Below the pieces are notes generated by a model that saw nothing but the letters and a program-made list of their open reading frames with translations, was not told where the DNA came from and searched no databases. Position numbers and translations under genes: made by a program. Below, one piece after another: positions 2,214 through 10,263 of a stretch of 11,027 nt of DNA. Where the stretch lies: the UHGV virus genome UHGV-0176277, one strand, 5' to 3'. Origin of the DNA: a virus. Numbering within the stretch: position 1 is the first letter of the stretch; each line of letters starts with the position of its first letter.

Positions 2214-3093
2214 CGTGTTCACCCTCACGAACTTTAAGGTAGGTATTGTCGTTAAGCAGGAAATCAAATCCCTTTTTGTGCCAGACGGTTCCGCGTTGAT
2301 GGTTTGGGCGTTCTTCGAACATCCATCGGCAATTTTCGCCTACGTAGCTCAAATAATTTCTCCAGTCCTGCATCGTGAAACCATGCCCGTCAAGCTGGCG
2401 GGTTATCACTCCGGCTTTGCGCCAGAACGTTCGGATCTGGTTTTTACGCTTGTCATTCAGTGCGCGGATTCTTGGCGCTTCAGGAAGGATTTCGTGGTAA
2501 GCATCGACAACATCCTGACAGCTAACGGAAGGTTTTTTCTTGTCAGACTTTTTGTCTGCTGTGGCACTCTCTAATACGTCAGTATTAGAGATATTATTTA
2601 TATTATTGTTTATGGACAACCGTTGGACAACCGTTGGACAATCTCCGCTGAGAGCCGCGCCATCACTGGTGTTTGCGTTGGACAACCGTTGGACAACCGT
2701 TGGACAATTTTTTGCCTGAAAATCGTCATATTTAACGATTGTAAACAGGCTAAATTTCTTCCCCATCGAGCAAATATTAAGCATCCCTTTCGACTCAAAA
2801 GTCCGTAATAAGCTCCGAACTTTGTTGTCGGGGATGAATGTTTCTCTGACCAGCGACGGGCGTCCAGTTATCATCTGACCGCGATCAACAGTTATCGGAC
2901 CGATATCCGTATTGACGACAGTAGATTCGTGATTAGCCTTGAGGATTAAGTGAAGCCAAAGATGTACTGCCTGAGAGTCCTTATAGAGCCTGCTGTCCAT
3001 AAACTGGCGGTGTATAGAGACATACCCCATACTGGATGCCTCCTGATGTTGTACAGGGTTATGCCTGTAATCAGCTAACTTAACGACGCCCAT
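2203..3093 (-). CDS. Replication initiation protein (lambda O / P22 gp18 functional analogue) with the origin embedded in its coding sequence
   Basis: Lies between cII and the helicase; coding region contains phased direct repeats that translate as repeated CPTVVQRLS; ATG at 3093 has AGGAG 6 nt upstream; an alternative start at 3030 (MGYVSIH...) has AGGAGG 8 nt upstream, so the true N-terminus is uncertain. Confidence 0.7.
   Translation of the reverse strand: MGVVKLADYRHNPVQHQEASSMGYVSIHRQFMDSRLYKDSQAVHLWLHLILKANHESTVVNTDIGPITVDRGQMITGRPSLVRETFIPDNKVRSLLRTFESKGMLNICSMGKKFSLFTIVKYDDFQAKNCPTVVQRLSNANTSDGAALSGDCPTVVQRLSINNNINNISNTDVLESATADKKSDKKKPSVSCQDVVDAYHEILPEAPRIRALNDKRKNQIRTFWRKAGVITRQLDGHGFTMQDWRNYLSYVGENCRWMFEERPNHQRGTVWHKKGFDFLLNDNTYLKVREGEHDDR
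2614..2707. repeat. Origin iterons: six copies of an 11-bp direct repeat (GGACAACCGTT) in two triplets, flanked by an AT-rich tract
   Basis: GGACAA begins at 2614, 2625, 2636 and at 2680, 2691, 2702; all six are in 11-bp register with a 44-bp GC-rich spacer; AT-rich 2582-2612 (tattagagatattatttatattattgtttat) lies on the downstream side of the O-like reading frame, as in ori-lambda. Confidence 0.75.
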
Positions 3094-7176: not shown

Positions 7177-7884
7177 ATGGATTTGAATAAATTAGATGAG
7201 CCATTCTGCCCTGAAGATATCGAATGGCGAATACAGCAAAGCGGTAAAACACGCGATGGCAAGGTGTGGGCTATGGTGCTGGCTTATGTCACGAACCGGG
7301 CAATCATGAGACGCCTGGACGATGTTTGCGGCAAAGCAGGATGGCGCAATGAATACCGCGATATTCCCAACAACGGAGGCGTTGAATGCGGCATATCAAT
7401 CAGGATTGATTCCGAATGGGTAACCAAATGGGATGCCGCTGAAAACACGCAGGTAGAAGCCGTCAAAGGCGGTCGTTCCGGTGCAATGAAGCGCGCTGCC
7501 GTTCAGTGGGGAATCGGTCGGTATCTGTATAACCTTGAGGAAGGTTTCGCACAAACATCTCTCGATAAAAAGCAGGGATGGCACAGGGCAAAACTCAAGG
7601 ATGGAACAGGATTTTACTGGCTCCCTCCATCGCTGCCGGGATGGGCAATACCAGCATCAGATAACAAACCATCACCAGAAAATACCAACCAGAAATCTCC
7701 ATCGGTTGACTGCGAACAAATCCTGAAAGACTTCAGCGATTATGCGTCAACAGAAACTGACAAGAAAAAACTCATCGAGCGTTATCAGCGTGACTGGCAA
7801 TTAATGGCTGGCAACGAGGAGGCGCAGGCTAAATGCGTTCAGGTAATGAACATCAGAGTTAACGAACTAAAACAGGCGGCATAA
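7177..7884 (+). CDS. Single-strand annealing protein, Rad52/22 superfamily (phage recombinase)
   Basis: Central block GKAGWRNEYRDIP...GGVECGISIRID...GAMKRAAVQWGIGRYLYNL resembles the Rad52-family annealing-domain signature; GAGGTGA SD; immediately followed by ssb. Confidence 0.75.
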   Translation: MDLNKLDEPFCPEDIEWRIQQSGKTRDGKVWAMVLAYVTNRAIMRRLDDVCGKAGWRNEYRDIPNNGGVECGISIRIDSEWVTKWDAAENTQVEAVKGGRSGAMKRAAVQWGIGRYLYNLEEGFAQTSLDKKQGWHRAKLKDGTGFYWLPPSLPGWAIPASDNKPSPENTNQKSPSVDCEQILKDFSDYASTETDKKKLIERYQRDWQLMAGNEEAQAKCVQVMNIRVNELKQAA

Positions 7885-8358
7885 ATGGGAAGTAGAGGCG
7901 TAAATAAGGTGATCATTATTGGTCGCCTTGGGCATGATCCAGAAATCAGATATTCACCATCAGGAACGGCATTTGCAAACCTTACAGTTGCTACGTCAGA
8001 ACAATGGCGTGATAAGCAAACTGGAGAGCAAAAGGAGCAGACGGAGTGGCACCGTGTGGTAATGAGCGGGAAACTGGCAGAAATTGCCAGCGAATATCTG
8101 CGAAAAGGCTCTGAGGTTTATCTTGAAGGCAAATTACGGACAAGAAAATGGCAGGATCAAAGCGGACAGGATAGGTTCACTACCGAAGTCATCGTGGGCG
8201 TTGGTGGAACCATGCAAATGCTTGGTGGCAAGCAAGGAGGCAATGAACAGTCTTCACCTCAGCGAAATAACGGTCAGCAACAAAGACAGCAGCCTCAGCA
8301 GCAGGGAAATCACAGCGAACCACCTATGAACTTCGACGATTCGGATATTCCGTTCTAG
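7885..8358 (+). CDS. ssb: Single-stranded DNA-binding protein (phage-encoded SSB)
   Basis: [59 protein letters not shown]... is near-colinear with E. coli SSB; Gly/Gln-rich linker and acidic tail DDSDIPF. Confidence 0.95.
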
Positions 8359-8367
8359 GAGCTGAAT

Positions 8368-8847
8368 ATGAAAATCTGCTCAAGATGCCATCAACAGAAG
8401 GAAGAAAGGGACTTTCAAATCAGAAGAGCATCCAGAGATGGATTAACTGCCGCTTGCCGTGCTTGCCTGGCTGAATACGACAAAGAACGCGCTGGATTGC
8501 CACATCGAGTATCAGCAAGGAGAGAATATCAATCATCGGAACGCGGCAGAGAACGGTGTAACGCAGCCAAAAAGCGGTTCATTCAGAGCAACCCATGGAA
8601 AAGAAAAGCCCACATCATTGTGGGTAATTTTTTGCGCGACGGTAAGCTAATCCGACCACCACAATGTGAGTGCTGCGGATCAGAATGTAAACCACAGGCG
8701 CACCACTGCGACTACAGTAAACCAACCGATGTGATGTGGCTCTGCAAGTCATGTCATGTCGAGTGGCACAAACATAACAAACCTATCTACCCAGATGAGG
8801 AACCAGTAACTCTCCCCTTCCCTCGTCACGCTATTCACGCAATTTAA
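8368..8847 (+). CDS. Cysteine-rich zinc-binding protein with an HNH-like motif (putative HNH nuclease or zinc-ribbon protein)
   Basis: N-terminal CSRCH...CRAC pair; C-terminal CECCGSEC...AHHCDY...WLCKSCHVEWHKH resembles the CxxC...HH...CxxCH arrangement of HNH nucleases but lacks a clear Asn; AGGAG SD 6 nt upstream. Confidence 0.5.
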   Translation: MKICSRCHQQKEERDFQIRRASRDGLTAACRACLAEYDKERAGLPHRVSARREYQSSERGRERCNAAKKRFIQSNPWKRKAHIIVGNFLRDGKLIRPPQCECCGSECKPQAHHCDYSKPTDVMWLCKSCHVEWHKHNKPIYPDEEPVTLPFPRHAIHAI

Positions 8848-8860
8848 TCAGGAGAAAATC

Positions 8861-9157
8861 ATGCCAGCGCCTCTGTATGGTGCGGATGACCCGCGCCGCT
8901 GTTCCGGCAATTCCGTATCGGAGGTGCTGGATAAATTCAGAAAAAACTACGACCTGATAATGTCTCTACCGCAGGAAACGAAAGAGGAAAAGGAATTTCG
9001 CCACTGTATATGGCTTGCAGAGAAAGAAGAACGCGAGCGAATTTACCAGACATCAATCCGACCATTCCGCAAAGCCACATATACCCACTTCCCTGAATAT
9101 ATCGACCCGCGCCTGCGTAATTACCGCTCACGCTATTGCGCTATCAGTAATGACTGA
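8861..9157 (+). CDS. Hypothetical protein (98 aa)
   Basis: AGGAG SD 6 nt upstream of the ATG; ORF fills the gap between flanking genes; no recognisable motif. Confidence 0.55.
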   Translation: MPAPLYGADDPRRCSGNSVSEVLDKFRKNYDLIMSLPQETKEEKEFRHCIWLAEKEERERIYQTSIRPFRKATYTHFPEYIDPRLRNYRSRYCAISND

Positions 9158-9458: not shown

Positions 9459-9622
9459 GAGGACTTGCATACAATCCCGGCATTCTTCCGGCAGAAATGA
9501 TTATTCGCCAACGCGTAAAGCCAATGCCATCGAGAGAGGAATTACTTAAGAGAAATTCTTTTCCATCAGTGAATGAAAACAAATATCTGAATGCGATGTG
9601 GCGCAAAGGAGGCAGCCAGTGA
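9455..9622 (+). CDS. Small hypothetical protein (55 aa), absent from the supplied ORF track
   Basis: ATG at 9455 overlaps the upstream stop (ATGA) with GGAGAG SD 6 nt upstream; its TGA stop overlaps the next gene's GTG start (GTGA); translation [55 protein letters not shown]. Confidence 0.45.
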
Positions 9623-10263
9623 CTAACCGTTTTTACATGATGTGCTCGCGTGAAACTGTGGGCAATAACGCTTCATTCCATTGCCATAACGGCAATGGTT
9701 ACAGTTCTGATATCGATCGCGCTCATGTTTACACGCTGGAAGAAGCCCAAAAAGCCTGGAATTGTGGGCGAGATATCGATCAGCCTGTTTGCGCTGATAG
9801 CGTGGATGCAATGGCAGTGTGGCACGTTGATTGCCAGTACATCCCTACAGAAAGCCTGATTGAGTCAGATTGCACTGCGTATGTGGCCTACAAAAAAGGT
9901 AGCTGGAACGGCAACGATGTTTACTGGCTTCAACACGGTGGATTGCCAACAGATGACTTCAGTAAAGCGACCATCTTTAGCGTCGCCAACAAAAACGAAC
10001 CAGGAATAGTTTGGTTGCCATTTTCCATTGCTGATGCAGCAAAGCGCAGGACGTTCAATATCAATAACTTTAACCGCAGAACAATGGTTCAGGGCGCAGG
10101 TTTGGTCATGCCTGACTGGTTGAAAGAGCAGAACAGAAGAAAGAAGTCGCGAAGCGGGAAGGTGCGTTGGAATTGTCCGCATTGCGGAAAAATCTCCTGG
10201 CAGTACAGCCCATATGATTTTGAAGGCTGTAGTGATTACAACTGTGAAGGATGGCGAGAATGA
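9619..10263 (+). CDS. Hypothetical protein with C-terminal zinc-ribbon motif (about 214 aa)
   Basis: GTG at 9619 preceded by AGGAGG 6 nt upstream (preferred over the track's 9598); C-terminus [29 protein letters not shown] has CxxC...C..C spacing; several additional conserved-looking Cys/His. Confidence 0.6.

Follow-up and report, generated by a model that had tools for sequence, protein, structure and literature searches.

What does the small cysteine-rich gene lodged between ssb and abc2 in virus genome UHGV-0176277 encode, and why is it found just there? In the stretch analysed here (11,027 nucleotides, hereafter the window) the + strand carries, in this order, the genes for a Rad52-like annealing protein and the single-stranded DNA-binding protein SSB (ssb), an open reading frame (ORF) at 8368..8847, and abc2. 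The ORF starts with ATG, 9 nt past the ssb stop codon, and codes for a gp26-type protein of 159 amino acids; it is 99.2% identical at the nucleotide level to gene 26 of phage Sf6 (NP_958202.1). The original prediction, made from the letters of the window, had correctly placed a Cys-rich protein directly downstream of ssb and had offered three functions for it: a nuclease partner of the annealing protein, a homing-type nuclease, or an anti-defence or regulatory zinc finger. The second fits best, on homology to the phage endonuclease I-KsaII, presence or absence at a single site and unrelated ssb neighbours. We propose that the ORF codes for a free-standing (not intron-borne) HNH-type homing endonuclease, the cassette of which includes a variant form of the last ~35 nt of ssb, and we put the probability of this reading at roughly two in three.

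Relatives that share the flanks of the ORF differ by its presence or absence at one precise site. In HK75-type phages ssb is followed directly by abc2, with the same flanks and without the ORF, and the empty ssb-abc2 junction of HK75 reads ...GATTTTGACGACGATATACCCTTTGCACCAGTAACTC... The gene is carried by the window, Sf6 and phage Huey and is absent from HK75, the loci L025 and L065 and others, and the empty allele is seen on both ssb backgrounds, Sf6-type and HK75-type. The last 46 nt of the ORF (query positions 435-480; 8802..8847, + strand), which code for a C-terminal tail of residues 146-159 (PVTLPFPRHAIHAI) and the stop codon, are 100% identical in megablast to the ssb ends of HK75, mEp235, mEpX2, epsilon34, g341c and others. 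Among abc2-anchored viral loci the empty allele was found in 13 of 80 and the filled allele in one of 80. In E. coli the whole gene is present in 98 genomes, out of 406 with a match to any part of it, and about 300 of 5,426 genomes match the tail only.

The divergence between the two allele types is local. At the left junction (8326..8361, + strand), alignment of filled with empty alleles delimits the last 10 sense codons of ssb and its stop codon, with a 3-nt TCG insertion, and then the sequence AGGAG. Over the last 40 nt of ssb, matched filled and empty alleles differ at 8-11 positions, mostly synonymously, as against ~0-3 differences per 40 nt across the preceding 1,100 nt; on the right, the flank (tail and abc2) is near-identical over ~360 nt. 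Filled alleles of both types have in common ATG AAC TTC GAC GAT..., whereas empty alleles of both types have in common ...TTT GAC GAC GAT ATA CCN TTT GCN. Divergence confined to ~35 nt at the ssb end would fit co-conversion, though ordinary mosaic recombination could give it too. In phage Huey (L126-128) the slot is occupied, between the same flanks, by a version of the gene that is just ~47-50% identical, and the neighbouring ssb is HK75-type (69% identical SSB).

Association of the gene with the end of ssb reaches well beyond these phages. We examined 80 viral loci fetched through the family alignment, 75 of them with a recognisable catalytic core; being the best matches to the ORF protein, they describe one subfamily and not the whole family. 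In 71 of the 75, a codon string for ...[DEQSN][IVL]PF, the C-terminal tip motif of SSB, ends 5-54 nt 5' of the start codon, against an expected background of ~0.035 per 150 nt. The association persists down to ~34-36% identity. The upstream tip proteins range from 95 to 395 aa, many of them hardly or not at all similar to the SSB of the window, and the arrangement recurs in Cronobacter (gene order ERF, SSB, gene), Hafnia and Pantoea prophages and in Yersinia, Vibrio and Klebsiella phages.

The gene also shows the sporadic distribution and the horizontal movement independent of its neighbour that are looked for in homing genes. Window-type versions that are 91-100% identical adjoin SSBs that are 63-99% identical, and versions 78-80% identical adjoin SSBs that are only 31-36% identical; all these SSBs nevertheless end in M[N/D]FDDSDIPF. 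On sequence comparison, the histories of the gene and of SSB are decoupled. A rank correlation between gene and SSB identities (rho 0.84) was set aside, since it is driven by ~25 near-identical loci and the discordant cases are the informative ones. Together with the diverged version that occupies the same slot in Huey, the position of the gene beside SSB bodies of differing relatedness suggests turnover at the site.

Alleles that carry the gene often have a non-canonical SSB tip. In the window, the 3-nt TCG insert adds a Ser to the tip (DDSDIPF), whose codons there read AAC TTC GAC GAT TCG GAT ATT CCG TTC. In Vibrio phage D70 (L173, 1150-1190) a 9-nt insert with a stop codon splits the tip codons (GACGAC-CGGTCTTAG-GACATCCCGTTCTAA), so that the annotated SSB ends in ...DFDDDRS, without IPF, while the IPF codons remain just downstream and the endonuclease gene lies 84 nt past the annotated end of ssb. 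Two further loci have tip proteins that read through 15 extra codons, APIGLQYGRNFLHCF in Klebsiella phage ZCKP1 (L174, 1229-1300) and SPVGLQYGRHRIYAL in L166 (~2950-3010), and in both the extra codons run, in a different frame, over the beginning of the endonuclease gene. The annotated start of the ZCKP1 endonuclease is apparently too far downstream, with loss of its first CxxC.

Extended tips are found in gene-less phages as well. The SSB of HK75 (ssb at 2040-2546 of L002) reads ...DDDIPF-APVTLPFPRHAIHAI up to its stop codon, and the same 15-residue extension past DDDIPF occurs in epsilon34, mEp235, L023, L025, L027, L065 and others. In E. coli, the partner proteins of SSB need the C-terminal tip at a free C-terminus, and the extension should therefore mask it.

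A different account of these alleles is that an ordinary accessory gene is being lost, through one in-frame deletion that joined the ssb tip to the last 14 codons of the gene, and that this deletion was spread by mosaic recombination, with no mobility driven by an endonuclease. The extension of the empty-allele SSB past DDDIPF does resemble a fusion scar, and many other deletion or fusion derivatives exist. In addition, the gene keeps the tail where an exonuclease gene replaces abc2 downstream, and a diverged form of the tail is present on a homologue that is just 41-44% identical (L135). However, this account leaves unexplained why versions of the gene down to ~34-36% identity lie 5-54 nt past the tip on unrelated SSB bodies, why the 47-50% identical version has identical flanks, and why the left junction diverges over ~35 nt only. 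An empty allele born by deletion would also be compatible with a homing cycle of invasion, decay and loss. We consider simple gene loss quite improbable as the whole explanation.

The surroundings of the gene bear other traces of rearrangement. The gene just upstream of abc2 is highly mosaic (L012-L090), being one of four unrelated cassettes, each joined at the abc2 ribosome-binding site: an SSB ending in ...DDSIPF, an SSB ending in ...DDDIPF plus the extension, a protein ending in ...NDYPPF, or a 3'-5' exonuclease. Chimeric ORFs of E. coli and Citrobacter prophages join N-terminal parts of SSB to the C-terminal half of the endonuclease, or the N-terminal part of the endonuclease to a 3'-5' exonuclease, a helix-turn-helix protein or other partners (for example P0011, P0014, P0024, P0053, P0057, P0060, P0063 and P0064). 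The chimeras indicate frequent deletions around the gene.

The same position beside ssb could mean instead that the protein works for the phage, as an active HNH nuclease partnering SSB or the recombination module. It might, for instance, make the nicks or breaks that start recombination dependent on the annealing protein and Abc2, or degrade the DNA of the host or of rivals, and its gene would lie at ssb for co-expression. The gene is indeed directly 3' of ssb in the same orientation, with a ribosome-binding site (AGGAG, 8357-8361) that overlaps the ssb stop codon; it lies in the recombination module of the early left operon, and its predicted catalytic residues are kept across tens of thousands of relatives. 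Against such a role, the gene is dispensable, as near-identical phages without it keep the annealing protein, SSB and Abc2, and its history differs from that of the SSB body. The frequent alteration of the SSB tip in filled alleles (the extra Ser, the D70 insert with a stop) would be odd for a partner of the tip, and members of the family are found in introns and at unrelated sites. This possibility is thus unlikely, although it stands above gene loss in our estimation. The narrower suggestion in the original prediction, a nuclease partner of the annealing protein, did not hold: HK75-type phages keep the genes for the Rad52-like annealing protein, SSB and Abc2 without the ORF, and the gene tracks the 3' end of ssb whatever the upstream annealing protein is (Rad52-like, ERF or other). 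A partner exonuclease of the lambda Exo or RecE type was likewise rejected, as the obligatory co-occurrence with an annealing protein was not seen and the fold is that of HNH.

The protein itself agrees with a nuclease. Two Cys pairs are found at the N-terminus (C4-x2-C7 and C30-x2-C33) and the C-terminal part has the pattern C100-x2-C103, H112-H113, C126-x2-C129-H130 and H134. Among 33 homologues, C100, C103, H112, H113, D115, Y116, P119, L125, H130, W133 and H134 are invariant, and C4, C7, C30, C33 and C126 are kept in at least 90%. The Cys/His pattern is likewise kept in 131 more distant representatives, with H130 and H134 retained in at least 90% of them. Residue 129 is Cys or His among family members, and C64, C102, C107 and C114 show no conservation among homologues. 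A profile search found 64,152 representatives of clusters built at 50% identity with E<=1e-3 and 30,827 with E<=1e-10, most of them 140-170 aa long with the same architecture as the ORF, and tblastn with the C-terminal domain matched 536 phage records. The Cys and His motifs described in the original prediction are therefore real and conserved in both sets of homologues, but their spacing, which had been called atypical, is the norm (CxxC...HH...CxxCH...H), because the same architecture is found throughout this large family.

An AlphaFold2 (AF2) model has a mean predicted local distance difference test score (pLDDT) of 92.6 for the whole protein and 97.2 for residues 76-142, and divides it into three parts and a tail. 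The N-terminal Cys4 zinc module (residues 1-36, with C4, C7, C30 and C33; 8368..8475, + strand), delimited by conservation and the model, has short strands at 16-18 and 26-30 and a helix from residue 31. A helical linker follows (residues 31-90; 8458..8637, + strand), with four helices (31-42, 45-56, 58-74 and 76-90) at pLDDT ~97-98. The C-terminal domain (8653..8778, + strand), recognised by motif and predicted fold, is of the HNH type (beta-beta-alpha-metal), with strands 110-113 and 122-125 and a helix at 127-136. The tail is disordered from about residue 145, where pLDDT falls to 46-66. Because the ORF runs into the 14 codons that end ssb in empty alleles, this tail appears to be borrowed from the locus.

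Three hallmarks of the HNH / His-Me finger fold are present, namely a beta-hairpin followed by an alpha-helix, a His at the end of the first strand together with a His or Asn in the helix, and two CxxC pairs that flank the motif as a predicted zinc site. The central Asn that braces the hairpin is absent, as the original prediction had remarked: in its register lies residue 121, five residues before C126 and just before the second strand, which is Asp in the ORF and Asp or Glu in most members, with other residues in some, and is not invariant. Several accepted His-Me finger nucleases also lack the central Asn, so its absence does not exclude the protein from the superfamily. On motif and predicted fold, the C-terminal domain may be assigned to the HNH / His-Me finger superfamily, although it fails curated sequence thresholds and has no such Asn. 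H112, H113, H130 and H134 are putative catalytic or metal-binding residues, and C100, C103, C126 and C129 are better read as putative structural zinc ligands of the HNH domain. Of the double zinc ribbon originally described, then, the Cys pairs are there, but the C-terminal ones would belong to a nuclease domain. That the putative nuclease nicks DNA, as opposed to making double-strand cuts, is a reasonable guess, since each chain has a single HNH site and nicking enzymes are among the closest folds.

Database searches by sequence gave little. Of the checks proposed with the original prediction, a Pfam search of the ORF protein returned no HNH match, whereas structure prediction gave a confident beta-beta-alpha unit. 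Pfam HNH (PF01844) appeared at E 0.68 in two of the 33 homologues and had no match at E<=0.01 in the 131 relatives; scans of both sets otherwise brought up zinc-ribbon or DUF6510 families, weakly and over the N-terminal module, and no homing-type HNH family such as HNH_3. NCBIfam gave no match and PADLOC no meaningful match to the ORF protein. No significant hit came from PDB sequence searches, whether the query was the protein, the full-length profile or the C-terminal-domain profile; T5 SciA (E 0.13) was the best nuclease. Foldseek against PDB also found nothing significant; the folds closest to the predicted structure are those of active nucleases.

These results bear on a third alternative, in which the protein is a non-catalytic zinc-finger regulator or a Lar-like restriction-alleviation factor and the HNH-like motif is a structural zinc scaffold only. 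It could appeal to a match to PHROG 5558 ('Lar-like'; E 7.5e-7) and to the missing canonical Asn and Pfam HNH match. The Lar-like match, however, is limited to the N-terminal zinc module (residues 1-69 against positions 8-76 of a 130-position profile), H112, H113 and H134 are invariant or nearly so, which goes beyond what zinc binding needs, and the closest folds and PADLOC lend it no support. We regard this alternative as highly improbable; the anti-defence or regulatory zinc finger of the original prediction finds no support either, given the limited Lar-like match and the PADLOC result, and a confident homology to a non-nuclease zinc-ribbon family, which would have told against a nuclease, was looked for and not found. 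Recombination endonuclease VII was set aside as well, with no Pfam PF02945 match in the query or in the 33 and 131 relatives and a match to PHROG 2633 over residues 1-55 only (E 1.6e-4). Both PHROG matches, Lar-like and 'endonuclease VII', arise because the N-terminal zinc module is shared.

This N-terminal module (CxxC...F...DG...CxxC) is an independent unit, because it is present as tandem copies in other proteins: 7-10 copies were found in proteins of 350-2,046 aa (P0090, P0098, P0104, P0108, P0119 and P0130), several of them without an HNH domain. They point to a zinc-finger repeat, widespread and uncurated, with a possible role in nucleic-acid binding. In the ORF protein, the module is probably the DNA-binding part that recognises the target.

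Considering all of this, the following course of events can be proposed for the locus. The gp26-type protein would be a three-part enzyme, in which the Cys4 module probably binds DNA, the helices act as a linker and the zinc-stabilised beta-beta-alpha-metal domain is the nuclease. The gene and the variant ssb end would form a mobile cassette placed immediately past the conserved SSB tip codons (...DDDIPF). When a phage or prophage with the gene meets a gene-less relative, the empty allele would be nicked or cut by the enzyme, in or close to the ssb tip or junction. Repair on the filled template, probably through the neighbouring recombination genes for the annealing protein, SSB and Abc2, would copy in the gene together with neighbouring ssb codons. 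The filled allele would be protected, its site being split by the insertion and altered by substitutions and the small insertion, so that the left junction at 8326..8361 may be seen as a modified, immune copy of the target site. Mobility is also suggested by relatives described as mobile, such as I-KsaII, and by distant relatives at unrelated sites, where the gene follows a methyltransferase gene or is a lone + strand gene among - strand genes. The common truncated and fused derivatives may represent its decay products. It is speculative that the HK75 extension is a relic of an older copy of the gene, left by successive invasions and decay at one site; the idea arises because the 15-aa extensions in L166 and ZCKP1 overlap the 5' ends of their own gene copies.

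Several points weigh against a homing endonuclease. A literature search found no nuclease activity, target site or homing event shown for gp26 or its close relatives, and the canonical HNH Asn is not conserved. Other placements exist: a polA intron, the 5' side of ssb (Erwinia phage Y2) and a site that follows a methyltransferase gene. A conserved place beside ssb is also what one would expect of a protein that works with SSB, and deletion with ordinary mosaic recombination could give presence and absence without homing driven by an endonuclease. Moreover, the event may have gone in either direction: the shared 14-codon tail may first have been part of ssb, with insertion into an extended ssb, or of the gene, with in-frame deletion. 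Among the other placements, the homologue of the Chaseviridae phage Y2 (L176, 1174-2165) lies upstream of ssb, and that of E. coli phage SKA49, also of the Chaseviridae (L177, 1264-2707), lies between a gene for a 288-aa protein ending in ...GMPF and polA. The SKA49 homologue and that of phage Calisson are mislabelled 'baseplate wedge protein'.

If the ORF is a homing endonuclease, a broader and more tentative idea, which we hold to be less likely than not, is that this HNH subfamily uses the DNA encoding the near-universal SSB tip (...DDDIPF-stop) as a portable homing site. One selfish gene could then pass from one ssb gene to another, unrelated one in many groups of phages, bringing its own 'immune' tip codons. 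The SSB end would sometimes be remodelled in the process, by an extra Ser, a truncation, or extensions of 9-15 aa that should mask the partner-binding tip, and the enzyme could also cut the ssb of rival phages and conceivably that of the host.

The window is the early-left region of an Sf6-like phage or prophage of the P22 group. The Rad52-like annealing protein is encoded at 7177-7884 (+ strand; Pfam and PHROG scans), ssb at 7885..8358 (+; Pfam SSB, E 1.7e-38; PHROG 44) and abc2, the anti-RecBCD gene that forms the right flank common to gene-less alleles, at 8861..9157 (+; Pfam Anti-RecBCD_p2, E 3.7e-62). Rfam gave no RNA family around the ORF, group I introns included. Further downstream, a 221-aa ORF (9598-10263, +), whose C-terminal part holds a CxxC...C...C cluster, matches PHROG 2457 ('unknown function', E 9e-119); a Pfam scan gave no family for this other Cys-containing product of the early left operon.

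Annotation of the gene has been uneven. The ORF matches PHROG 2340 'endonuclease' (E 2.6e-47), from which the label of Sf6 gene 26 in RefSeq derives; the sole remark on gene 26 in the original Sf6 annotation was that 14 residues are identical to 'E. coli SSB'. In E. coli genomes annotated by the RefSeq Prokaryotic Genome Annotation Pipeline (PGAP), the 480 bp between ssb and the anti-RecBCD gene carry no annotation, as seen in the ~500-bp gap of the E. coli EJN001 chromosome (L171, 1492-1993) and in all the matched E. coli genomes, and the records of phages IME10, N7 and others likewise have no feature at this position. The pipeline thus leaves a member of the family unannotated in E. coli prophages.

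Phage HNH homing-type endonucleases are a well-known kind of element, and it is the attachment to the conserved end of ssb that appears to be undescribed; our literature search (Sf6 gene 26, HNH or homing endonucleases beside ssb, PHROG 2340, T5 SciA) found no description of the gene or of the link with ssb. To our knowledge, homing endonucleases are little documented in P22-like and lambdoid temperate phages. The gene is an entry to a family of tens of thousands of clusters that sequence searches of Pfam, NCBIfam and PDB fail to recognise. Any breaks made by its product would be repaired by the very recombination module in which the gene lies, and its tight link to the ssb end points to a specific candidate target, the conserved SSB tip codons. 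The link would explain the mosaic boundary, as well as the 15-residue-extended SSBs in HK75, mEp235, epsilon34 and ~300 E. coli genomes.

Comparison with known systems helps to place the protein. HK97 gp74 is, like it, a small HNH protein of a lambdoid phage, which assists terminase, but it lies beside packaging genes and has neither the zinc Cys pairs nor the N-terminal module; a role as terminase cofactor was dropped on gene position and on hhalign, in which the family profile showed no relationship to gp74 (probability 0.27%). Gme HNH (PDB 4h9d) and phage T5 SciA (PDB 9qgx) are small zinc-containing HNH nicking endonucleases of solved structure, without the N-terminal Cys4 module and helical linker and without significant sequence similarity to the ORF protein. 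We know of no report of either as a homing endonuclease or as linked to ssb. The I-HmuI-type HNH homing enzymes of Bacillus phages act by nicking DNA and bring about gene conversion; unlike the ORF protein, they have the HNH domain at the N-terminus and DNA-binding modules at the C-terminus, lack Cys4 zinc sites and are intron-encoded.

The closest named relative is I-KsaII of Staphylococcus phage K (Kayvirus), a full-length homologue with 35% identity over 146 aa (E 2e-29). Both are phage-borne and share the N-terminal CxxC...CxxC, the helical linker and the C-terminal pattern C-x2-C...AHHxDYxKP..V.WLCxxCH...H. The I-KsaII ORF sits between polA exons in the Staphylococcus Kayvirus record and has been described as encoded in a group I intron of polA (PMC5618024), in contrast to the free-standing gene between ssb and abc2 in the window. 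Rfam found no intron in the fetched Kayvirus polA locus, so that the intron status of I-KsaII rests on the record annotation and that description, and I-KsaII itself is labelled just a 'putative' endonuclease.

In its position, the gene is best compared with segG of phage T4. SegG is encoded by a free-standing homing endonuclease gene between gene 32, which codes for the phage SSB, and gene 59, and it reportedly cleaves the SSB gene in a relative without segG, with co-conversion of flanking markers. It differs in being a GIY-YIG enzyme of a virulent T-even phage that acts at another site and has no sequence relationship to the HNH protein of the ORF. The logic of SegG, an endonuclease gene beside an SSB gene whose product cuts the copy of a relative, is nevertheless the logic that we propose for the ORF at 8368..8847.

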